Assembly (NCBI GenBank): GCA_965649765.1
Contig: OZ287752.1
Coordinates: 12,958,001 to 13,022,000 of the forward strand
Direction: 5' to 3'
DNA from: Bispira polyomma
Lineage: Eukaryota
Length of the DNA: 64,000 nt
Below are positions 1,160 through 53,976 of the stretch, piece after piece; within the stretch, counting starts at the first letter, position 1; every line of letters starts with the position of its first letter. The notes under the pieces were generated by a model. That model saw only the letters and a list, made by a program, of their open reading frames with translations, was not told the origin of the DNA and searched no databases. A program made the translations under genes and the position numbers.

Positions 1160-3390
1160 GATAGAACATTTGGTTTCACAGGACATGACCACAAACATGA
1201 ACAGTTCATTGGACCCAGTAGTACACATCAACACGTATGAGAAACTAATACAAGTGACAGACATTATTAAACTGACCGGATTGCCTAACTATAAAATGGC
1301 TAGAATCCCCATTAAGTCTAACCTTAATGTTGATGTGTGAAAACAATACTTAAGGGACTAATATGACAAGTCCTTGCTAGACTACATAGAATTTGAATTC
1401 CCAATATCACTTTACGATAGAAGTAAACTTAACACAAAAGTGATAAAAAATACCATTCTGCTATAATATTCCTAGAAAAGATTGACAAATATTTTACAGA
1501 GGAAACTGAGAAAGGTACCATTATTGGCCCAATTAGTGAGCCAATTAATCCCCTCTCCTCACCCGTCCAGAGGACAAACACCAGAGAAGGTTGATTCTAA
1601 ATCTATCACACCCTGAGGGTTCCTCAGTCAATGACTGGACTGTAAAAAACAAGTATGACGGCGTAGACTTCACCTTGAAATTGCCCAAAATCGACCAGAT
1701 CACAACAAAACTACTGACTTTAGGAGATAAGGCAACCTTAGCAAAGGTAGATGTCAAAAACGCATTTAGAAATATACGAGTAGACCAATATGACTGCGTG
1801 AAACTCGGTTATTCCTGGAACAACAAATATTACGTTGATCTTAGTCTGACATTCGGCCTCACACACGGCACATCACTATTTATGAAGATCAGTGACGCAA
1901 TTACTCATATTATGCAACACAAGGGTTTTTGCACTTTTAACTACATCGATGATTTTATCCTTTGTGAAAATGAAGATAGGACTACAGTAGCCTACAATAC
2001 TTTACAACAAGTACTAGTTGATTTAGGACTTCCCATCAATAAGAACAAACTTGTGGCACCGAGTAAAAGGGTCACATGCATGGGAATCACAATAGACATG
2101 AATAAACAAACACTTAGTATAGACGACGATAAATTGGCATCTGTAATTGAAACGTGTGTAGAATTTGTTACATTAAAAAGTGTGAGAAAGAATAAATACC
2201 AATCGCTTCTGGGAAAGCTACTGTATGTACACAGAGTAATTAAGCCCTATCGCTTGTTCATGAATTGAATGTTGGCACTTCAGCACAATTCAATAAGTAA
2301 CAAAATTATCACCCTCACAAGCGATTTCCATAAAGATTTAACAGCTGTGTGCCGTCTCTGTAATGAGCATGAAGAAACAATAATTCACTTGTTTGTCCAT
2401 TGCCAAGTATTAAGTTTAATTGTACTCCTAGTACATTGATCTTTGGAACTTGGGAATCTAAAATACCTAATATTCCTATAAATGTTATTTATATAACAGC
2501 AAAATTCTATATTCTTAAACGTTCAAGATCCAATGCATACTTAAATTTGTTTGAGTACCAAAAGTATCTAAAGAGTAAATATAACGAACAATATTTATTA
2601 TCTGAAATTGAAATGTGTGATAAAAAGTTTAGCAAATCATGGTCAGTGTTTGTAAATCTGTTGAAACAATAATTTATGTTACCATAAAAAATTGTTGTGA
2701 TCTAAAATTGAGCAATGGTCAGATTTGTTACATTTGTAGTTTTGATTTGTACTCGTACTGCGTATGAGACACTCTGTAACTAAACCTCGATGGGGGGTTG
2801 GCTACCCTCGCCCTCCCGAGGTGTTTCCTTTGTTGTAAAAAAAGGGTAAATAAAACATTATTGGGACGCGGAAAAAAAAAGAAAAAAAAGATTTAAATTG
2901 GTTCCTAACCTTTCTACACCAATTCAATGGTACTGCTAAATAGCAGTGACAACAGGGAACATGAGGAACTAATATACATGGATGCTTGCTTAACGGGGAT
3001 AGGCGGAGAGTGTAACACTAATGTGTTCAAGACTCCCATACCAACATTTAGTGCAGACTCTTTATCAATCGTACACTTTGAAATGTTGGGAGTATTATTA
3101 ACGTTAAAAACACGGGGTAAAGAACTCCAAGACAAGAAAGTAAAAATTAAATCAGATAATGCAGCAGTGGTTTCTGTCGTGCAGTCCTCTAGAATAAAAG
3201 ACGACTACCTTGCTTTATGCATTAGGAACTTATGTTTCATATCCGCGACACTTAACATTGACCTCGACATTGACCACATAAGGGGCAAGGACAATGTCCT
3301 TGCAGACACCCTATCAAAGAACTAATAGTAAACAATTTCACAAATCATAATGTTTCTGTGAACATGTTTTTAATGAACAATACCTTTTAA
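1160..3390 (+). pseudogene. pol: Element 1 RT/RNase H (pol), disrupted by stops, frameshifts and a LINE insertion
   Basis: ORFs 1591-2268 (RT) and 2927-3325 (RNase H). Removing 2342-2886 plus one TSD copy restores SDFHKDLNWFLTFLHQFNG. Upstream GLPNYKMARIPIKSNLN matches element 2 (FPNYKKARYPIISGLN). Confidence 0.85.
2342..2886 (+). mobile_element. 5'-truncated L1/Tx1-type LINE 3' end nested in element 1
   Basis: ORF2 C-terminal zinc knuckle CRLCNEHEETIIHLFVHC, then AKFYI...KKFSKSW*, a 3' UTR and a poly(A) tail. 10-bp TSD aaagatttaa at 2332-2341 and 2887-2896. Confidence 0.85.
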
Positions 3391-3396
3391 TTGCAG

Positions 3397-4517
3397 GAAC
3401 ATCTCCATCAGACCATTAGTACTACAAGCAGGGTGCCGCGGTGGCCTAGTGGTTAGCAAGCATTGCGCTTCACAATCACTGGTCTCTCACCTCTGGGCGG
3501 CATGAGTTCAAATCCCGTCAATGCCTATGTGGGAAAGGTGGTAGTTCCTTACTGTAGGTCGCTGGTTTCAGTGCAGAACCTTGATCAATTGTATGCAATG
3601 TTTCCTCCAGAATTTCCAACTACCCGTCCCAATATAACCTAAACAGGTACTAGAGTGGACGTTAAATATCCCAATTAAAAAAAAAAACAAAAAAAAAAAA
3701 AAATTACTACAAGCAGTACAGAGAATGACAGACAGCCAAAGACTAAGAACAAAGAAAATGTACGACAGACAATTTATACTATATATCTCATTTGTGACAT
3801 ATTACCAAATCACTGACACATTCAGCTTCAGCACAATTGTGTCCTTTTTAGAGTTGTTTCACCACTCAAACATATCAGTAAAAGCTATTAATAACTACCT
3901 GTCAGCAATTAGACATAATTGCAAGCTGCTAAATATACAGCACACTGACCTCTATGATCAAAGAATCTCACTCTACACTATATCTCTAGAACTCTCATCA
4001 CCTTTTACACCAAAGGAGTTTTTGACCTTCACCAGTTACATAATATATCCAAGGCATGCTCACACTCACATTTCCAAGAATTATACAGATCTGCTTTTCT
4101 CATAGCATATTTTGGTTTCCTCAGAATTTCAAACCTCACTCCTTCTTCAGGTCAGCTTTTTGACTCTACTAGACACATCACTAGATCAGACATTATTTTT
4201 GCACCACCAGGCATTCATCTCATCCTCAAATGGTCCAAAACTAACCAGACTAGAACCTCAACAAACATTATACAATTACCAAAGTTAAGAAACCCTTGGC
4301 TCTGACATTATTAAATATCCCTTTACAATGGCACTCCTTCCACTGTTTAGGTAGATCAGGGGCTTCTCTAGCCTTCAATCAGAACATAAAACTTCAAGAC
4401 ATCCAGAAACATGGGTGTTGGAAGTCAGATGCAGTCTGGGCCTACCTAGAGTCCACTTCACACGCGGCCTCTATAATTCCTTCCACTTTCGCCTCTATCA
4501 TCCCTCATTCTATTTAA
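3397..4517 (+). pseudogene. Element 1 tyrosine recombinase, disrupted
   Basis: ORFs 3725-4105 and 4296-4517 with YR motifs (FLRISN; HCLGRSGA; HGCWKSDAVWAY). Interrupted by a SINE, frameshifts and an internal deletion relative to element 2. Confidence 0.85.
3431..3704 (+). mobile_element. tRNA-derived SINE (copy 1)
   Basis: A box TGGCCTAGTGG 3442-3452, B box GAGTTCAAATCC 3504-3515, poly(A) tail, TSD tactacaagca at 3420-3430 and 3705-3715. A similar copy lies at 37704-37957. Confidence 0.9.
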
Positions 4518-5101
4518 ACTTCCTTTGGCTTTGGCATGTTTTTAAAATGTAATATTTTAAAATTCTGTAAAGTTGTAAATAGAAATCTGTAAAATAAATT
4601 CCCAAACCTGCATCTGACTTCATCACTTATAAAAGGTCACTTACCAATACTTACCTACTAGCCTCACAAGGCAAGTTCAACTGGCCCTACAAGGCAAGTG
4701 GAACTACGGTGACCCATAACGGTCAAACTATCCATGATGAATTATAAGGGACTGGCTGTCTTACGATAAATGGCTTTTACATATTGGTCATTATCGGTCC
4801 TAAAGATTTGGGATATGAAACCAATTTGCTAGGAATTTTCTGAGCAGGTCAAATTCAACCCGTTCTTCAAATTCAAAGGTGTGTGTCCATATTGTCTCAC
4901 ATATTATTTTTGAAAACTGGTAAAATATTAAAAACTATGATTGAAGCTCATATATTGCAGTTTAAATGATTTAGGAACATAAAAAGACTACAATATTGTA
5001 TTGCATTTTGTATTTTAATGTGCCTTATTAATGTGAGACACAACAACAGAATCAGTAAACCAATCAACAAGTCAAAAAACAAGAAGTGTATAGGAAGGAA
5101 A

Positions 5102-23755: not shown

Positions 23756-23966
23756 TGTGCACAACACGACTACTCTAGGGGTCTGTTAGTTCAGTCCAAC
23801 ATAAGATTTATCCAACCTTAAAAATTTTAGGTTACACATAACCTTTATTTTCCTGTTTATGTGATAACCTCCAATCAAATTCAAGTTTAGTCACCCATGA
23901 CCGCTCCCCTCCATTTTATTAGCATTATTAACTCGAGATTTGAACGAGCAACACAGACATTTTGAA
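23756..23966 (+). repeat. Left terminal direct repeat of element 2
   Basis: 211 bp, 3 mismatches to 29191-29401 (manual count). Confidence 0.95.
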
Positions 23967-24068
23967 AACTGGAATGTATATAGTATTTTTTATTTATTTT
24001 ATTTTAGTTTGTTTTTAGTTTTATACATCCAGTCATTATTTATGTATAGTGTGATCCATAAGAAGAAA

Positions 24069-25410
24069 ATGGGCAAAACAACGGAGAAAACGCCAGTTAA
24101 AAGGGCAGACAAAGCTAGGACAAAGAAGAGTACGGTAATTTTCACAGACCTCAGCAAAGGTCAGCAGGTATCAGACTTTATAGTTTCCGAGGTTCAAGCT
24201 CAGTTAACTGCCTTAGCGGCTAGACCTCTCGAACCGTCTCCAGAATTCTTATCCACAACTACTACCAACTCCAGGGCCGCTTATGGTCAGGTCACACCTC
24301 CACGTGCACCTAATAACATCACCACCGAGTCTTTACTGCCACATACTCTGGGCTACTCGACTGCAGACAGAGACCTTGCTTTTCATGGCGAGTCAACAGC
24401 CCATGTCGAGCGTTACTGCTAGTACAGACAGCTCATCAGAGATGCTGGCTATACTTAGACGACTGGAAACTTCGAACGCAGAACTCAGTCAGCAAATCAG
24501 TAAGGTTCAAACGACTCAGATCCAACAAGCGTTACTTACTAGGCCGGCTGCAGATATCACAGGAGCACACCACTCCACGTCAGCAGCTTCAGCGTCAATA
24601 GCTCCACCTCCGTTATGTCACATATGGGCGATGAATCCAGGTCCAACTGCATTACCCTCAGGTCATCAGGACTTTGCTAAGGACGACATGGTTCAACAAC
24701 TGGACACTCTTTGGGCGATACCAGCCATACAGGCGGCCATAGCCAGGCGGTTAGCGGGGTATGAGACCAATATCCAGAGAGACATTCTTCAAGGTAAGGC
24801 TCCAGTAAAACAGAAATCTGGGCGTTATAACAGTTCTGACATTTACACAACAAACCCCAAATTTCGATGGCCGAATGAGGGGTGGGTAGGCGCTAACGCG
24901 AAACGGAAACCGACTTTTGACGACTTGTCTTTGGTGCAATGGGCGGCTGGGCAGCTCAACAATGCTCTTCTAGTAGCAGACCCTGTCTTGATGAAAGGTA
25001 TGATCCAGCAAGTAGTTCACACACTCAGGGACGCGGCAGCTCTCCCCTGGCCAGTGGTTCGCACGGCCTGGGGCCACAGTATGCAGGAAATAGAAGAAGG
25101 GCGACTTACATGGGACAACCAAACGCAGTGGGCTTTAAATAGATTAAGTGCATCTCAAATGGCACTAGTAAGCAATACTGGTAACAATGGTAGCAATGAT
25201 CTGAGTAAGGGGAAACAAAATGAATTTAAGACGATCTGTAAGTTGTACAACAATGGGAAATGTTCTCACAAAACCGACCATGCTAACTACAGGCATATTT
25301 GTTGGCATTGTTCGAAAACATTTGGCAAGGATGCAGTGCACCCTGAGTTCAAATGCTTTAAATTTCAGGCCAATCTGAACAAGAACCCAGAACAGTCAAA
25401 TAATCATTAG
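24069..25410 (+). pseudogene. gag: Element 2 gag-like ORF (one frameshift near 24390)
   Basis: ATG at 24069 (MGKTTEK...) joins ORF 24283-25410. C-terminal Cys/His cluster CKLYNNGKC..H..YRHICWHC....H....C as in DIRS/Ngaro gag. Confidence 0.8.
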
Positions 25411-26144
25411 GGACAATAGCGTCAGCCAATCAGCGAATCGGAAGTGTATAGTATTAAGCAGGAAAGTTGTATAACTTGTGTCACCAGTAAGGAAGGTAAA
25501 GAAGTCAGTAGTAAAATAAATAATCATGATTTTAATGCCAAGACTAATTCTAACATTGCCAATAATGTTCGCATGCAGGTAGTGAAGAACACACCAAGGG
25601 AGCATTATGATACTGTGAATGATTTAAAAAATAGTAGAAAGGTTCTTGACGCTTTAACAAGTAATTGTTTACAGGAAAATTTTGAGGATACTAATCCTAC
25701 TTTATCAGTCAAGTCCTATGGTAAAGATACTGGTTGTACTACCGGTGAAACTATTCAAGTGCATATATCTGTTACAAATTTATCTGAAATTTCTAGTTAT
25801 GGGGGAGTCATGGCCCCAGTGGTTTATATTCAGAGTGAAAATAAGAACTTTAGCAAGGGCTTCTATTGCCTTTGCCACTGTGCTACATACAATTGTATGG
25901 TATATTCTCCAATATTAGTTGTTAATTCAACAGGTGAACTGCAGATTATAGATCTGCTAATTATTCTTATGATATCAGGAAACAAGCAAAAAATTGTTAC
26001 TATTACCATAAAAAAGATCTGCAGTCCTCTGTTCAACATAATTATAACTATACTTCTTATATAGAAAATGTAATTGATGTCTTAATTAAGCAATCACAGG
26101 CAGCAGATGTCTGTCATGTCAGAGATAGTCAAAATGTAAATAAA

Positions 26145-28011
26145 ATGATTGTTAATAAAAGCAAGCAGGTAAAGGTGAGTAGGGACGACTTACCGTATTC
26201 ACATACGCATCCGTCTGTCTTCCTCGAAAACTGTCATAGCACAAATATCCAGGTAGACAGAAATACTACCAGTTCTGGTAACACTGACATTAATAATCCA
26301 GACAAAACTACAGGTTTTATGGCACTTTCTTCTACAAAATTTGAATTTATAGGTCCTGACAGGAAACCTGTCAACATTGATTCAGTAGAAAAAATGATTG
26401 AAACCGGCAAGCTGGTTAGTGACACTGAGTTTCCTAACTACAAAAAAGCCAGGTATCCAATCATTTCAGGTTTGAACCCAAGTGCTTTGGAAAACATTTT
26501 TTCTGATTATCCTGACCAGCTGGTAATCCAGTATGTTAAATTTAGGCTTACTAATCCTGATAGCTTAAACAACATAAAAATAAAAAAAACTCTTCTCTGC
26601 TTTACAATACACTAAGGCTGTAGGGCAATATCTAGACAAAGAGAAAGACAATGAAGCTATGTTGGGCCCAGTCAAAGCCATTCACTCTACACAATTACAT
26701 TGTTCTCCATTATTAACCCGTCTGAAAGACGTTGACAAAAGGTGAGTAATTTTGCATCTCTCTTATCCCCAGGGCGATTCTCTGAATGACAATGTTAACA
26801 AAGTACAGTTTGACGGGGTAGAATTTAAATTAAAATTTCCAACCATAGATGATATTACACAGGCAATTCGTTGCACTCAGGAACCGACTTTGTTTAAAAT
26901 CGACATTTCGCGCGCATTTCGTAACCTTAGAGTCGATCCGGCTGAGGTCATAAAGTTGGGCATATCTTGGAACGACGAGTTGTATCTGGATCCGGCGTCC
27001 TGGATCCATTCGGGTGGGTTCATGGGAGCGGGGCGTTTCAGCGATGCTCAGACGCAGTAGCATTTTACATGAATAAGTCAGGTTTTAATTTACTTTGCTA
27101 CATCGATGACTACATATGTATTACACCTAAACATAAGACTAAGGAAGGCTTTGAAATTTTGACAGATTTACTATGTAAATTAGGTCTTCCCATGAACAGC
27201 GAGAAACTCACTCCACCCACACAGACTATGACATGTCTGGGCAAAAATATTGATATACAGAAGGGCACAATTTCTATCACCAAGGAAAAAATTACCCAAA
27301 TTGGAATCTATGTTTGGAAATTTATAATAAAAAATTCATTTCAAAAAACAAGGTAGTCTGCTGTACATACACAAATGTGTGAAGCCAGTGCGTACTTTCA
27401 TAAATAGACTACTAATAGCATTTAGAGGCAATACTGACAAGCGCATTGAGGTCAATGCGGACATGAAAAGTGATTTATAATGGTTTCTGAAATTTTTTCC
27501 TTCCTACAACGGAGTCACATATATTAACCCCACCATAGTTTCAGACGATAACAAACTACATCTGGACGTTTGCCTCATAGGTTTTGGAGGTGTTTGGGGT
27601 GACCAGGTATATGCAACTCCAATACATAATGTTTACAACCGAGACTTAAATATTGCACATCTCGAGATGTTAAATATTATAATAGCTATTAGAATCTGGG
27701 CGAATGACTGGGCCCACAGCAAATTAAACATTCATTGTGATAACATGGCTGTAGTATTGGTTGTCAGATCCCAAAAGACTAAAGATGACTTCTTAGCATT
27801 CTGTTTAAGGAACTTATGGCTAATAGCAGCAGTACATGGTATAACACTTACTATAGAACATATTCCTGGGAAATAAAATATTACAGCAGACGCTTTATCT
27901 AGAGTATACTCAGCTAACCCACCTTGTGTGGAAATGATGGAGGCATTAAACAAGAATTTTCAATGGAAACTAGTTCCATTGGAATACTTTAACCTTAATT
28001 TATCTGTGTAA
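26145..28011 (+). pseudogene. pol: Element 2 RT/RNase H (pol), disrupted
   Basis: FKIDISRAFRNL, FGWVHGS, CYIDDY, LHLDVCLIGFGG, HLEMLN, HCDNMAVV, HIPGK*NITADALSR, with several stops and frameshifts. Ends at TAA 28009-28011. Confidence 0.88.
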
Positions 28012-28017
28012 TTGCAG

Positions 28018-28994
28018 GCTCTACCAACCTCAGCAGCCAATTTGTAGCCTCAGCCTGGAACAGAATTGACACTGCCATCAGACCAAAGACAGCTAGTGCT
28101 TATAAGTCACAATTTAGTACCTTTCTGGCATTTAATTATTTTGTTGGCATTTATCAAGTAACTGTACATTCAGTACTGGTATTTCTAGAGTATCTGGTTC
28201 AAGCGGGGTTATCACCCAGGGCTATAAATAACTATGTAGCTGCCATTAAATACATGATACAAAAATAGCAACTAGACCCTACACCATTATCACACAAATA
28301 CATTCAATTATTCTTGAGAAACTTGAAACATAATTCAGTTTTCAAGCCAAAACACAAAGGCATTTTCGACATACAACAACTGGCTAGTGTTTCCAAGGCT
28401 TGCAATATCCTGGAAGATCCATTATTGTTCAGGGCTATATTCCTCATGGCATTTTTTGCATTTTTGAGACTGTTAAACATAGCAGCACATTCAAAATCGG
28501 CCTTTGACCCTACCAGACATTTCCTCAGGCAAGACCTATTATTTAGACCACCTGGGGCACATATAACACTTAAGTGGGCGAAAAACCTACAGAACAGATC
28601 TGACACAGACATAATACAAATTCCTGAACTTCACAATACTATATTGTGCCGTGTATTAGCTTTAAGGAAATTGCTTGCTTCCAGGAATCTTTCACACAAA
28701 GCACCATTATTTGCAATGGCTACCCCACCTTTCTACCCTGTGGTGGATTCTCACGTGAGGGCAGCTCTCCAAAATTTTTTAGAACACATTGGCATTGAAT
28801 ACAAATCACATGGCTTCCATACTTTTAGAAGATCTGGAGCCACATACGCATTCAACAATAATGTTTCATTACAGAACATAATGTCACATGGCTTATGGAG
28901 GTCTTCAGCTGTGTGAACCTACTTGCAACAGACATCAGAAGCAGCTTCTGTTGTCCCTCTCACTTTCGCTTCCACCATTCCTCCTTCCTCTTAG
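28018..28994 (+). pseudogene. Element 2 tyrosine recombinase (two in-frame stops)
   Basis: AIRPKTASAY, FFAFLRLLNI, HGFHTFRRSGAT, HGLWRSSAV*TY. No ATG at the N-terminus; preceded by an AG acceptor. Confidence 0.88.
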
Positions 28995-29190
28995 TTGGGC
29001 TTGGGTGTCAAAAAATTTCAAAATAATTTTAAAATTTTTATTACTTTACATCTTATCTGTACATGTACATATATACTAACGTGTAAAAAATAAAATCCTC
29101 AAACAGAGTTTCATTGACTTATAAACTTATTCCAACAAACTTCTTTGGGAATCATCTTAACTTATTGCTTTCACATCTTAGAACTTGGAC

Positions 29191-29401
29191 TGTGCACAAC
29201 ACGACTACTCTAGGGGTCTGTTAGTTCAGTCCAACATAGGATTTATCCAACCTTAAAAATTTTAGGTTACACATAACCTTTATTTTCCTGTTTATGTGAT
29301 AACCTCCAATCAAATTCAAGTTTAGTCACCCATAACCGCTCCCCTCCATTTTGTTAGCATTATTAACTCGAGATTTGAACGAGCAACACAGACATTTTGA
29401 A
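29191..29401 (+). repeat. Right terminal direct repeat of element 2
   Basis: Matches 23756-23966. Confidence 0.95.
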
Positions 29402-30126
29402 CTCTAAATACTTCCGGTATAAAACTCTTTACATTAAAGTCTATGCGTACTTCTAATACCACAAATACTTCCTTGAGTTCATTATATACAGGAAGATTAT
29501 TGCGAGACGCGTGTAATGTGATCATTCTGTTCCAAATACGGTATATGTACAGTGTCTGTATATAAACAGGCTGGTATAAGTCCGATTTTATTATGCTACA
29601 GACTTCAAAGAAATATACGTTTCAATACTATAAAAAGCTGTTCATTAAAATTGTTAATATTGTGATTTTATACAGTTTCAATAGAAAATGTTATGGCAGT
29701 GTATACATGGGGAGACTTTGTGAGAGACAAGAAAATTAAACAGATATTTCAAAATCAAAAGTTTGTAAAGTCAGTCATACTAAACAAGAGCCAAAACATT
29801 TGGGGTTTTTTATTATCCATCAGTTTGTTTATACAAAAGTGAACAATTATGTCTGAGAAAATATATTAAGCGAAAAAAAAAATTGACATGTAATATATCC
29901 AAACTTTGAGTTAAGCAATATAATTACATTTATAAATGGCTAATTAAGCTTATTTAGGATAGGATAGACAAAATATATTTACATAATTTATAAATAATTA
30001 CCTAAATAAGATGATTATGTGAAAAAGAACACAAAACAAACCCAGATCAAGTGATTTCTTGCTTTGTGAATACCGATTTTATTTTAGGGAACACTTGAGA
30101 GTTTGTTCTCAAATTTTATCTGATCT

Positions 30127-31758
30127 TGATCCTTATTGATGAATACTGTTCCCCTGATCCTTGTTGATGAATACTGTCCTTCTGATCCTTGTTCATGAAT
30201 ACTGCCCCCCTGATCCCTGTTTATGAATACTGCCCCCTGATCATTGTTCATGGATACTGTCCCCCTGATCCTTATTCATGAATACTGTCCCTATGATCTG
30301 TAATCATGAATATTGTCCCCTGATCCGTGTTCATGAAAATTGTCTCCTAATCCTTGTACATAAATAATGTCCCCCTGATCCTTGTTCATGAATGCTGTCC
30401 CCCTGATCCTTGTTCGTGAATACTTTCCCCCTGATCCCTGTTTATGAATACTGCCCCCTGATCCTTGTTTGTAAAAATTGTCCCCTGATCCTTGCAGATG
30501 AATATTGTTCCCTGATCATTGTTTATGAATACTGTCCCCCTGATCCTTCTTCGTGAATACTGTCCCCCTGATCCTTGTTTATGAATATTTCCCCCTGATC
30601 CCTGTTTGTGGATACTGTCCCCTGTTCCTTGTTTGTGAATACTGTCCCCTTGATCCTTGTTTGTAAATACTGCCTCTATGATCTGTGTGCATGAATACTG
30701 TCCCCATGATCATTGTTCGTGAATACTGTCAACCTGATCCTTGTTTGTAAATATTGACCCCTTGATCCTAGGTCATGAATACTGCCCCCTGATCCTTGTT
30801 TATGAATACTGTCCCCCTGATTTTTGTTTGTGAATACTGTTCCCCTGAGCCTTGATTGTAAATACACTAAGCTTGTTCGTGAATACTGTCCCACTGATTC
30901 TTGTTTATGGATACTGACCCACTGATCCTTGTTTGTGAATACTGTTCCCCTGATTGTTGTTTGTAAATATTGTCCCTCTGATCCTTGCTTGTGAATACAG
31001 TCCCCATGAAGCTTGTTCGTGAATACTGTCCCACTGATCCTTGTAGATGAATAATGTTCCTCTGATTCCTGTTCATGAATATTCTTCTACTGATCCTTGT
31101 TCGTGAATTCTCTCCTTGTTTGATCATGAATATTGCCCCCATGATGCTTGTTTGATCGTGAATACTGTCCTATTGATCCTTGTTTGTGAATACTGTTTCT
31201 CCGATCCTTGTTCATGAATACTGTCCCACTGAGCCTTTTTTGTGAATACTGTCCCCATGAACCTTGTTCGGGAATACTGTCCCACTGATCCTTGTAAATG
31301 AATACTGTTCCATTGATCCTTGTTTATGAATATTGCCCCCCCCCCTGATCCTTGTAGATGAATACTGTCCCCCTGATCCTTGTTCATGGAGATTGTCCCC
31401 CTGATCCTTGTTTGTAAATACTGTCCCTATGATCTGTAATCATGAATACTGTCCCCCTGATCCCTGTTTATGAATTCTGCCCCCTGATCCTTGTTCATGG
31501 ATACTGTCACAATGATCCTTGTTTGTGAAAATTGTCCCCTGATCCTTGTAGATAAATATTGTCCCCTGATCCTTGTTCATAAATACTGTCCCCCTGATCC
31601 TTGTTTGTGAATACTATTCCCCTGATTCTTGTTTATGAATACTGTCCAACTAATCCTTGTTCATGAATACTGTCCTCCTAATCCTTGTTCGATCGTGAAT
31701 TCTGTCCCCATGATACTTGTTTGATTGTGAATACTGTCCCATTGATCCTGGTTCTGAA
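30127..31758. repeat. Minisatellite, same ~28-bp unit, longer paralog
   Basis: Same unit and same flanks as 14423-15431. Confidence 0.95.
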
Positions 31759-49024: not shown

Positions 49025-52000
49025 ATTATTTTTTTTTTTATTTTTGTCCTCATTTACATTATAATTACATACATTGTTTTCATACATAGAATATATAATT
49101 ATGGTTTCTTTTGTTACGGCTAAAGCCTATACATTTACATATTATTATTAATCCTCCTGACCAGGCAACTATTTAACTGTTCTAAGTTAAAGTCAAGAAA
49201 CCATATATTGACTTAATACAGAACTTATTTGTTTTCCATTTGTTCACTTTTACACTAGACAACACAGTGCCACATTTTGTCAGAGGCATTTTACTTGTAG
49301 TTTACAGAGAGAAGATTGGCTCCCACTTAATCCAAGATGTTTTAAATTTTTCTGCCTTATCCTGCAGCTGACATATTAAGAATTCATCGCAGTATAGCGC
49401 TTTTAATTTCTGTTTTAAGGCCTTTAAGGAGAGTCTTCCATTTTGATTGGTGGAATCAAAAATACACTTCTTTACTGTCATAATTAAAGCATTCACAGGG
49501 ACATTATTTTGGTCGTTCAACTGGTAGCCAAAGATTATTGTAAAGTCAGTAAAATTGACCTTAACTTTTATGATTTCATTTATATGTTCCGCAATAATTC
49601 TCCAAAACTTTTTTATTTCAGAGCATTCAACAAACATGTGCATCAAGGTTTCGTTTTCCATATTCCATCTAGCACAATGTGTATTATCAACAACATTTAA
49701 TTTCTTTAGATAGTTTCTCGTAGCTATCAATCTGTAAATTATTTTAAGCTGAAACCAAGTCAGACTATTATTGGTAATTGTCTTAAAGCAAAATCTAAAT
49801 ATGGCCCTCCAAGTTATATCGTTAATGTTTGTTTTTAAGTCAATATTCCATTTTAGTTTCATGTTATGGTTGTTTGTATCATTTATATTTAAGCATCGAT
49901 AAAAATCTTGTGCTAGATTTATACAAAATTTTGGAGTGACCAGGGAGAAAGGGTCTTTTAACTATATGACCTGTATTTATCCTTTTTCTTTTGATATATT
50001 CTTTGACATTGAGTTTCATTTGATGATATTGTAGATAGTTCTTCTTATCGAGACTGTAAATGTCTTTAAGTTTATCTAATGTCAAGAAAGATCCTGATTT
50101 ATTCAAAATGTCAGAAATTATCAATATTCCACTTTTAAACCATTCTGGTATTATAAGGGTCACACTTGATATTTCACTAATAAACCATAAAGGGCTTGCC
50201 AGTGCCTCCTCGTCTGTAAGCGCATGCTGGTTAATCAAAGATTCCCAGGCCTCGAAAACTTCTATCCAAAAAAATGTTTGAGATTTTTCCTTTCACATAC
50301 TTTAAATGAAGTTTTCAACCTTTTCATGTATACTAGCTTTGAAAAAGTCAACCTACGGGGAATTTGATCGAAGCAGTCTACGAAACCATGTGACCTTAAG
50401 GAAATTTATAGATTTTACCAATTTTATCATTTTTAGGCCTCCAATATTGTTGTCCAATGAAAGTACACTTCTGTTTATCTTGTCTGGTTTGTTATTCCAT
50501 ATAAATTTAAACAAGATAGAATTTAACTGGTCCAATAAAGATTCCTTTGGCATTGGTAGGCTTAACAATATATGATTGAGTTTAGCCAGTAGAAAGGTCT
50601 TTACAACAGTTATTTTACCCATTGGGGTCAAATTCCTTTTATTCCAGTAGTTAATACTGCCCTTGATTTCAAGAATTTTTGAGTGGTAGTTTAGTTTTGG
50701 CATGTGATCCAAATCGACAGAGAAGATCAAACCCAAAAGATCAAAAACAGTTACTCCCCAATCGAATAAACCCTTAGATAGTTTATCTTTGGAATGTCTT
50801 TTCTTACCAATCCATATTAATTTAGTTTTATCGGTGTTGATCCTTAAACCTGAGATTGTTCCAAAAATTTCGAGTGTGTTTAAAGCTGCTTCAAAAGAGA
50901 CATCGGTCCCATCCAAAAATAAGGCAGTATCATCAGCAAATTGTGTTAGTCTAAATTCGGTATTACCTACAGATAAACCTTTAATTTTTGGATTATTGGT
51001 TATTAAGAGACTTAAGACCTGGGTTGCTATTATAAACAAATAAGGTGATATAGGATCACCTTGCCTACAACCTCGTTGGATTTCAATAAAGTCTGACATA
51101 AAACCACTTTGCAAAATTGTTGCTTTGATATTATTATTAAAAAGGTAGATCCAATTCAAAAATTGTGGACTGAATCCTAAACAGCTTAGTATTTTGTACA
51201 AAAACTGCCAAGAGATAGAATCGAAGGCCTTTTCAAAATCTATCAACATAAGTAGCCCAGATATGCCATTGCTTTCTGCATAATGCATTAGGTCGTACAC
51301 TAAACGTGTGCATTCTCCTATGTATCTTCCTGGAATAAAGCCATTCTGACTATTATCTATCAAAAAATCCAAGACTGGTTTAATTCTATTTGCAATAACG
51401 GCTGAGGCTAATTTATACACTACTGACAGCATTGATAGAGGATGCCAGTTTTTTAGGTACTCTTTAGGTTTGCCTTTTTTTGGAAGGCAAGTATTTACAC
51501 ATTGTCTTAATGATAGCGATAGAACACCTTTTTCAAAACTGAAGTTTAATGCAGGTAATAATCAGTTTCCAAGTGACCTCCAGAAAACTTTAAAAAATTC
51601 CGCAGGAAATTCATCAATACCTGGTGTTTTGTTGTTTTTCGTATGTTTCAAGGCATTGCTCAATTCATTATAAGTCAGTGGGCCTTCCAAGGATTTAGAC
51701 TGTGTTACAGTAAGCTTTTTGGCCTTATAAGTACCAAGTAATGTGTCAAGATCAGTTTTTTTGAGTTGGTCATCTCTGGAATGAAACAGCCTACTATAAA
51801 ATGATTTTAATTCATTTAGGATCTCTTTCTGATGTGTCACCAGAACACCATTAGCTTTTACAACTCTTTTTACTGTCTTTTCAATATAGTTTTGATGTTC
51901 GAGAGCACAAAAGAATTTGGTAGGTCTTTCACCTTCAACTAGCCATTGAACCCGGGATCTTATCTTTTGACCTTTTAAGGCCTCATTTCTTAGGATCTCA

Positions 52001-53976
52001 AGTTCTTGTTTTTTACCATTTATCAAATCTAAATTTTCAGGTGTTTGACCTTCTAACTGTTCAATTTCACTTACAAGCAGTGTTTCCGCTGTGGCGTTTT
52101 TACGTTTTTTCAAACTTGAATATTTAATGGTTTCTTCTCTTCTTCTAAGTAAGAGCGTCTCTAGAAAAAGATCATCAGGGATTGTTAATTGTTTTTCACT
52201 AACTGCGATGTGGGAGAAATTTTCAAAGTTATACACTGGGATGGCATACTTAAATTCTTCTTAAAGAATATATTTGTTAATCAAGCACAAATAGTCTTTA
52301 TCTTTCAATAAATGACAGTTTAGCTTCCATAAACCCTTTCCTCTTTGAAATTTATTTATTAAGATGTGTATTTGTACCATTGAATGATCTGACCTGTATC
52401 CAGGGTTAATATCTACTGCACTTATTAAATCAGTTAAAGATGAAGAGACAATGATATAATCCAATCTGGCTTGTTTAATAGGATTTTTCTTGCGCCAAGT
52501 ATAACGTCTCATTTCTGGATGAAGATAGCGGAAAATATCCACCAAATTGCGTTTTGTTATAGTATTTAGTACTAGATTTCTATTTTTAGGATTGTTCAAA
52601 TTGACTTAGTTGTAGCTGTCCAAATCGGGGTCCAAGATCAAATTAAAGTCCCCACACCAAATAACATAATCTTGTTCAGATTTGTCCATGTAGTTTTCGA
52701 CTGATGTAAAGAATGGCTCATTTTCTGTGTTTGGGGCATATATATTAATTAATCGGATCTTAATATCGCTTATTTTTATATCCAGTATAATCATGTTGGA
52801 TTCCTCGTGACCTTAATGACCTTTAAAATTTTGTATTCAAAATTATTTCGAAGCAATATTGCCACTCCTTGTGCATTACTACGATCACCATTTAAAATTA
52901 TATCTCCATCCCAATAATTCAAAATATTTGACTAGTCCGATTTAACTAAATGTGTATCTTGTAAACACACATAATATTTACCATCGTATCTTTTAGATAG
53001 TTTAGGACATCATATCTCTTTTCCTTACTAGCTAGTCCGTGGCAATTTAGGGATATTAACTTTAGTCTTTCTCCCATTCTATAATTATTGTACATATTAA
53101 CCGATAACCATAAGTGGGAGCCGCTACACAAATTGCTTCTAGAAAAACTAGCTGTTTCAAATGCCTCAGCTGGAAATGTAAGAACATGTTATTTGTAATA
53201 TTATGATTATTTATGAGCTCATGTATAATTACTTCATACACATACAAAATCAGTTTCAACAAACACGTACCTTGGCTATACTTTTCAAGTGCTTGAATGA
53301 TACTTTTGCAGTTGACTGCAACCCTGTATAACTCAACATTTTCTATGTTATAAAAGTGTAACAAACTTAATGTAATAGAGGACATTTGTATAACTTGATT
53401 AAAAATATATACACTTAAACATACAAAAATAAAAAAAAATTTAAAAATCAGTACTGACAGAAATATATGTGAGTTACTGTATATAACATAATAAGGCCAG
53501 GTTTCCTATCAGGCATTTTTAAACAGAATTATCTTAATAATCCTTTGGAAATTAAATGTTATTGTCAACATCAGTCCAACTTGACTGTAAATGAAAGACA
53601 AGATATTCTGAAACTTACTCTATATAATGTTACATTTCATTGACATGCAGACACTAGTAGTATCTACTTAAGCTTTAATGGTTTATTTTACTTCGCCAGT
53701 ATATTGTTAACTAAACGCTCTATTTCGATCTAGTGTTCATTTCTGCTACCTATATATTATGTAAGCATGCCTGATGGAGATTGTTGTTATACAGACATCA
53801 GTATTATGCACATACTTGTATATATATACAAAAATTGGTCAAAATTATATACGAGTCCCCAGTTAGGTTGCCATTTGCTGTAACAGTAATTATGACCGAA
53901 TAAACTGAATAGGTCTTGTGTTAATTTAAATACTTTATTCTACAACAAAATATTTTTTTATACTACCATGTCTAAT
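49025..53976 (-). mobile_element. L1/Tx1-clade LINE, decayed ORF2, no ORF1 seen
   Basis: APE endonuclease (SLNCHGL, INIYAPN, CGDFN, RLDYI, SDH), RT (IDFEKAFDS, RQGDPISPYLF, QFADDT) and a C-terminal Cys/His motif. Poly(A) at ~49025-49045. 16-bp TSD tacgttgagtaatatt at 49009-49024 and 53977-53992; empty site in copy C ~40220. Confidence 0.93.
49302..53100 (-). pseudogene. LINE ORF2 (EN-RT), fragmented
   Basis: Seven collinear ORF fragments in the ORF track between 49302 and 53131. Confidence 0.88.

Follow-up and report, generated by a model that had tools for sequence, protein, structure and literature searches.

How does a retrotransposon translate a recombinase gene that lies at the far end of its RNA and lacks a start codon? 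We found one printed proposal, a guess at ribosomal frameshifting. The question is raised by a 64,000-nucleotide stretch of the Bispira polyomma genome (GenBank assembly GCA_965649765.1, contig OZ287752.1, positions 12,958,001 to 13,022,000 of the forward strand; hereafter the window, whose own numbering we use throughout), which holds two divergent retrotransposon copies, elements 1 and 2. Element 2 (positions 23756-29401) is, by its gene order and repeats, a decayed Ngaro-type tyrosine recombinase (YR) retrotransposon. Its relatives carry a conserved 5' splice site (donor) within gag and a conserved 3' splice site (acceptor) at the start of the YR frame, in matching phase, and their YR frames have no conserved start codon. 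We consider it likely (probability roughly 0.85, based on comparison of genomic copies) that splicing yields the mRNA for the recombinase, which would be translated as the N-terminal half of Gag fused to the whole YR.

The window contains exactly two copies of the string TAATTGCAGG, at 3388-3397 and 28009-28018, one in each element, as a first-pass annotation of this DNA had reported. That annotation joined the second occurrence to the donor CAAG/GTAAGG at 24793/24794 in element 2 gag (slashes mark predicted cuts). The donor is in phase 1, splitting the GGT codon of the gag sequence ...DILQ-G-K between its first and second bases; the acceptor at 28017/28018 leaves two bases ahead of the YR frame (GSTNLSSQFVASAWNR), and the join is therefore in frame, in agreement with the earlier claim. 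YR homology was also said to begin at the junction without an ATG, and we find the same: the alignment starts there, and the first ATG in the element 2 YR frame is at 28254, 78 codons downstream. The proposal that the RNase H stop lies inside the shared string stands for the family, where TAA is the stop and precedes the junction codon by 8 bases in most relatives, but not for the two window copies as they are now, in both of which an earlier stop ends RNase H. Conservation of the string itself has to be recast, in that the exact string is clade-specific and the acceptor pattern TT-N-Y-AG is general across families. In element 1 the acceptor is off phase by one base; decay had been suggested as the cause, which the alignment bears out: element 1 lacks 4 bases immediately past the acceptor that are present in 3 of 3 aligned relatives. 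The element 1 donor had been placed outside the window, and it was located (in locus L070) 535 bases upstream of the window as CACG/GTAAGC, in phase 1. Element 2 cannot make the fusion today, because its gag is frameshifted and its YR frame contains two stops (Table 1).

To these copies we compared 148 loci of about 8-9 kb each, collected by DNA and protein searches of the genome (1.04 Gb, 75 contigs); with the window copy they make 149 loci, which are the top-ranked matches and not a random draw. They fall into 31 families at 80% nucleotide identity over YR. A YR tree of 23 of the 31 families (eight short-frame families were omitted), drawn for this genome, has three well-supported clades, and the YR of the reference family is about 29-38% identical to that of the other two. 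At each locus the acceptor position was anchored on a conserved YR tyrosine, using queries that excluded the junction.

A phase-1 AG lies exactly 28 codons before this tyrosine at 126 of the 149 loci. Most copies have it in 28 of 31 families, as do 63 of the 67 copies whose YR frame is open, against a background of 63 AGs among 837 positions at the same codon boundary over the following 27 codons. Across the 29 families with AG, positions -6 and -5 are T in every family and position -3 is C or T in every family, with any base at -4; the residue at the join is Gly in 22, Asp in 5 and Ala in 2, and the preceding residue takes seven values. Because the encoded residues vary while these bases are fixed or restricted, the constraint is on nucleotides, and the TT-N-Y-AG profile resembles the 3' splice site consensus rather than a conserved peptide. 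In two clades the acceptor tract includes the RNase H stop; in the third the stop is 24-84 nt upstream. A T-T-T-R-A-Y-like stretch near -30 to -25, where a branch point might lie, is common but overlaps RNase H codons. The spliced model had implied that family members lack an ATG-initiated YR, and this is what open-frame copies show: their first Met falls anywhere from codon -18 to codon +228, and nearly all have an in-frame stop 1-27 codons upstream of the junction. Family 8 (L107-L119) has an ATG immediately past the acceptor and could therefore initiate YR on exon 2 as well.

The donor was examined in the 59 of the 149 loci, from 19 families, that have an open gag segment. Its glycine codon is GGT in all 19 families, compared with 7 of 14, 5 of 15 and 4 of 19 (16 of 48 together) for three other conserved glycines, and the other conserved columns of gag (Gly, Leu, Arg, Pro and Ala) use all codons. 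At one third per family, GGT in 19 of 19 would have a probability of about 1e-9 if families were independent, a figure that overstates the case because the families are related. More broadly, GGT is present in 98 of 98 loci in which the Gly-Lys/Arg motif could be located, and G/GTAA in 25 of 25 families, which upholds the expectation that the donor be conserved and in phase among family members. Donor and acceptor together follow the consensus of a U2-type (GT-AG) spliceosomal intron, with conservation of the nucleotides themselves. The gag donor ranks first or second in 12 of the 14 elements scanned with splice site matrices, although the matrices come from the same families and the ranks are therefore only partly independent. 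A weak structural model of Gag (mean predicted local distance difference test [pLDDT] score of 57) has a long helix at 137-170, helices at 222-251, the donor at residue 253 and a helical core and finger thereafter; the donor thus falls in a low-confidence linker just past helix 229-251, and in this model the predicted cut would lie between domains. A donor on the gag stop was considered and rejected (GT follows TAG in just 3 of 20 families).

We then held the rule for both sites fixed and applied it to 20 further loci (8 clusters, 7 of them new families). Acceptors were found in 20 of 20 and donors in 16 of the 16 loci in which they could be located; one of the 20 loci has AAG at the acceptor after an altered upstream stretch.

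Several points weigh against a spliced Gag-YR product, or reduce the weight of the counts given above. The pairing of the gag donor with the YR acceptor is itself the step that we infer, and the match between their phases represents one ancestral event, worth only about 3 to 1. The families are related, and counts over them are not independent. The acceptor AG is missing from 23 of the 149 loci (19 of these have broken YR frames), the third-clade acceptor ranks only 6th-32nd under a matrix derived largely from the other clades, and the donor could not be located in 51 loci, where the motif is deleted or mutated (two of these, L064 and L137, have G-to-A changes). Searches for spliced products have been negative. 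Three exact junction motifs have no match in the genome, that is, no intron-less copy; two broad junction patterns, whose exon-2 parts recover 86 of 129 and 14 of 20 known loci, gave 2 and 9 matches, all in unrelated DNA or unspliced elements; and matches to the end of exon 1 were joined to YR in none of 60 loci. No Gag-YR fusion was found among 276 proteins (an exon-1 profile matched gags and no YR N-terminus), in libraries that appear to be gene calls made without splicing, and a search for long proteins returned two RT/RNase H-YR fusions (RT, reverse transcriptase). Three sequencing runs (at most two samples, from one study) cover all parts of the elements evenly and with copy-specific deletions, and are therefore read as DNA; no donor-acceptor joint was present among 15 of 51 and 15 of 31 joints in their DNA-like contigs. 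Metagenome scans gave no matches. Missing intron-less copies, fused proteins and junction contigs are weak counter-evidence, because the searches were limited in extent and because a spliced RNA does not have to be reverse transcribed.

Four loci with long YR frames were inspected as possible spliced copies. L170 and L171 keep gag and pol upstream and were rejected as intron-less copies. L271, rejected as a spliced copy, is a Pol-YR fusion in a frame of 1,121 codons that arose by loss of the RNase H stop, probably through decay, and it keeps donor and acceptor intact. L272 has an altered upstream stretch.

The printed alternative is that YR is reached by programmed -1 ribosomal frameshifting at the end of RNase H, giving Gag-Pol-YR; a passage of PMC13003380 quotes Poulter and Butler 2015 as proposing that YR is probably translated by programmed frameshifting in the overlap with RT/RNase H. 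A -1 overlap of 7-70 nt between YR and the end of RNase H is indeed present in 17 of our families, and Pol and YR form one open frame in the decayed copy L271; but just 3 of these 17 families have a slippery heptamer inside the overlap, and in 6 third-clade families YR follows RNase H in the same reading frame after a stop, without overlapping it. The third clade has a clear A-AAA-AAC at its gag-pol junction, so that such signals are visible where present, and frameshifting leaves the invariant YAG and the GGT donor codon unexplained. Fungal Ngaro YRs are likewise described, in a passage of PMC3783388, as in frame or frameshifted in all groups. Such variation in frame would be tolerated by splicing and not by a fixed frameshift, and we judge frameshifting very unlikely. 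We say the same of termination-reinitiation or internal initiation overlapping the RNase H stop (a TAATT stop with a near-cognate AUU, or ATGA in some families), a kind of stop-start coupling that occurs in other elements and viruses. It would suit the two clades with a stop at a fixed distance and ATT in the YR frame, the ATG three codons before the junction in family 14 and directly after it in family 8, and the several predicted YRs of other genomes that start M-I-S-G. It accounts neither for the third clade, in which 24-84 nt separate the stop from the acceptor and position -7 is variable, nor for the Y-AG at -3 to -1, the gag donor or the scattered positions of the first Met.

Somewhat less improbable, though still a small minority view, is that both sites are real and serve other partners or other jobs, the acceptor being used with another donor, and the gag donor in another splice or in blocking polyadenylation through U1. 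Blocking of premature termination by U1 binding is named in a section title of a paper on Ty1/Copia elements (PMC5580714), and some of our elements have a second donor-like site of similar score; yet these second sites differ between families, the gag donor ranks first or second in most elements, the top five sites of the 14 elements include no common phase-1 acceptor where pol begins, and the phases of donor and acceptor match. It is hardly tenable that protein conservation and common descent alone produced the motifs, with no role in splicing: gags of other genomes also keep Gly-Lys at the protein level and the families are related, but the other conserved columns of the same gag stretch use all codons, and the bases before the AG would then be coding in neither frame, although 4 of 6 are fixed or restricted in 29 of 29 families. 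The acceptor profile, the donor codon and the held-out results refute this explanation in large part.

Splicing of the gag donor to the YR acceptor would also fit protein data from other genomes. Four gags keep Q-G-K/R at the donor. Among 122 predicted YRs, 27 reach the junction, with S, V, T or L at residue -1 in 24 and G, D or A at residue 0 in 21, as TT-N-Y-AG-N would encode, which is indirectly consistent with the same acceptor there; the remainder have scattered called starts.

Under the spliced model, the host spliceosome would remove an intron of 3-3.5 kb containing the C-terminal half of Gag, the zinc finger, RT and RNase H (predicted introns range from 2.6 to 4.2 kb in 38 tabulated relatives), leaving a protein of roughly 420-660 amino acids with about 100-330 Gag residues and about 325 YR residues. 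The unspliced RNA would serve as template for reverse transcription and as messenger for Gag and, by recoding, for Gag-Pol. Of the 20 families of the first two clades for which data are available, 19 have TAG as the gag stop, usually with G as the next base, and pol continues in the frame of gag with no conserved Met (long frames in 14 families); no strong hairpin was seen after the gag TAG. In four third-clade families gag ends just past A-AAA-AAC and pol is open in the -1 frame. Readthrough of UAG is the likely route to Pol in the first two clades and -1 frameshifting in the third, two predicted modes of recoding at one junction within one superfamily. More speculatively, YR might be recruited to the Gag/Gag-Pol particle by the shared N-terminal half of Gag, in which a coiled coil is predicted and a helical motif runs up to the donor. 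With more reserve than for the splice itself, we lean towards a general model for animal Ngaro elements: three products would come from one transcript, the splice would be ancestral to a wide lineage, the Gag N-terminal half would package or target YR, and the annotated stand-alone YR reading frame would be a second exon.

Retroviral env and foamy-virus pol are expressed from spliced RNAs, gammaretroviruses read through UAG and betaretroviruses shift frame at A-AAA-AAC. The elements described here would resemble retroviruses in reaching a downstream reading frame by splicing from a 5' donor and in making Gag-Pol by recoding. They differ in that the donor lies in the middle of gag and would add 100-330 coding residues, and in that the product is a recombinase; these elements have neither env nor a DDE integrase. 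In the plant Ty1/Copia element EVD, according to passages of PMC5580714, a conserved, regulated intron likewise yields a subgenomic mRNA that balances proteins, but there the spliced RNA makes Gag alone, whereas the splice proposed here would skip pol and yield the integrating enzyme as a Gag fusion.

The assignment to Ngaro follows published definitions as given in passages of PMC4157794, PMC9210276 and PMC13465315, and is made by gene order and repeats rather than by a reference tree. The gag, RT/RNase H and YR open reading frames (ORFs) lie in this order on a single strand, and relatives have the full layout of A1, ORFs, B1, A2, spacer and B2, the A1 ... B1 A2 B2 split direct repeats being complete in L041, L056, L108, L129 and L145; element 2 has A1, B1 and A2 and lacks B2. 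DIRS1-like membership (inverted terminal repeats, internal complementary region) is ruled out by the direct terminal repeats, and PAT-like membership (methyltransferase with split direct repeats) by the lack of a methyltransferase domain: none of the four full pol ORFs (4 of 4) has a Pfam methyltransferase match after RNase H, and no more than about 40 residues separate the end of RNase H from the pol stop. The YRs align over the catalytic motifs FLR, HxFRRSGA, HGxW and VWxY; Pfam Phage_integrase (PF00589) matches one copy at the cut-off and others below it, and relatives have SAM-like matches. The gag-like ORF has homologs in other genomes and no Pfam match, and a search of the ESM Atlas returned unnamed clusters; because a Foldseek search with the Gag model gave no match at E <= 0.001, the name Gag rests on position and the zinc finger. 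Passages on Ngaro-like elements of the order DIRS (PMC9210276, PMC4157794, PMC3783388, PMC8547959, PMC6681497 and PMC13465315) agree with our elements in the single orientation of the three genes, the A1 ... B1 A2 B2 repeats, the lack of a methyltransferase and the overlap of YR with RNase H in the -1 or same frame. These passages give no splicing, and the sole mechanism quoted is ribosomal frameshifting. Our elements differ from them further in that no SGNH hydrolase ORF was seen and in an A2-B2 separation of about 0.7-1 kb. In L041 and L133 this spacer contains a strong acceptor-like pyrimidine tract ending in CTACAG, which may represent a further splice in the 3' end.

Table 1. Features of elements 1 and 2 in window coordinates
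Feature	Position	Strand	Remarks
Split direct repeat A1, 5' end of element 2	23756-23966	+	211 nt, 99% identity to 29191-29401
gag-like ORF1	24069-25410	+	ATG 24069, TAG 25408-25410; frameshifted here by a deletion near 24381
Predicted 5' splice site AAG/GTAAGG	24791-24799	+	Phase 1, within gag Gly-Lys codons
Predicted GT-AG intron	24794-28017	+	3,224 nt; contains gag C-terminal half, zinc finger and entire pol
Cys/His zinc-finger-like gag end	25237-25356	+	From translation; invariant Cys/His columns; excised by predicted splice
gag stop TAG-G, pol next in same frame	25408-25411	+	Predicted readthrough site
pol (RT, RNase H)	25411-28011	+	Broken in this copy; family stop TAA 28009-28011
Predicted 3' splice site ...TAATTGCAG/G	28003-28018	+	Phase 1
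Tyrosine recombinase exon	28018-28994	+	325 codons; premature stops at 28266 and 28914 here
Repeat B1	29002-29190	+	B2 partner missing here, found in relatives
Split direct repeat A2	29191-29401	+	Copy of A1
Element 1 acceptor	3382-3397	+	AG at 3395-3396
Element 1 YR, decayed	3397-4520	+	4-base gap after acceptor, insert 3431-3715, more frameshifts

YR retrotransposons are very abundant and diverse in B. polyomma: one YR query gave 13,697 first-look candidates, and at least 38 families were sampled, several with copies more than 99% identical. Contigs of all three sequencing runs join 23758 to 29405, the empty site of element 2, so this decayed, B2-less copy seems to be polymorphic. Element 1 is interrupted in YR by a 285-nt insert (3431-3715) whose features include a poly-A tail and a target duplication of 11 nt, SINE-like (short interspersed nuclear element) by eye, in which ARAGORN called no tRNA, and in RNase H (about 2341-2890) by an insert of roughly 550 nt that ends in an A-run and encodes a Cys/His stretch resembling the 3' end of a LINE (long interspersed nuclear element). 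Elsewhere in the window, a 28-bp minisatellite array (30099-31755) lies just downstream of element 2, and a broken LINE-type element with RVT_1 and zf-RVT matches occupies 49302-52260 on the minus strand.

The type of element is already known, and the route of expression appears to be new: no report of a spliced Gag-YR fusion was found in passages of the Ngaro/DIRS literature, although older Ngaro reviews, supplements or Repbase may mention splicing (our literature basis comprises passages of PMC7192593, PMC9341512, PMC6681497, PMC9210276, PMC8547959, PMC4157794, PMC2685390, PMC3783388, PMC13003380, PMC13465315 and PMC5580714). In Cafeteria, loss of ORF1 accompanies a changed target preference, according to a passage of PMC8547959, and a Gag N-terminal half carried on YR would be a possible route for Gag to steer integration. 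The conserved splice would give the exact junction of the recombinase, and so redefine the protein to express for biochemistry. It would also add to the known cases a retrotransposon that keeps a regulated intron of 3 kb while copying itself through RNA.

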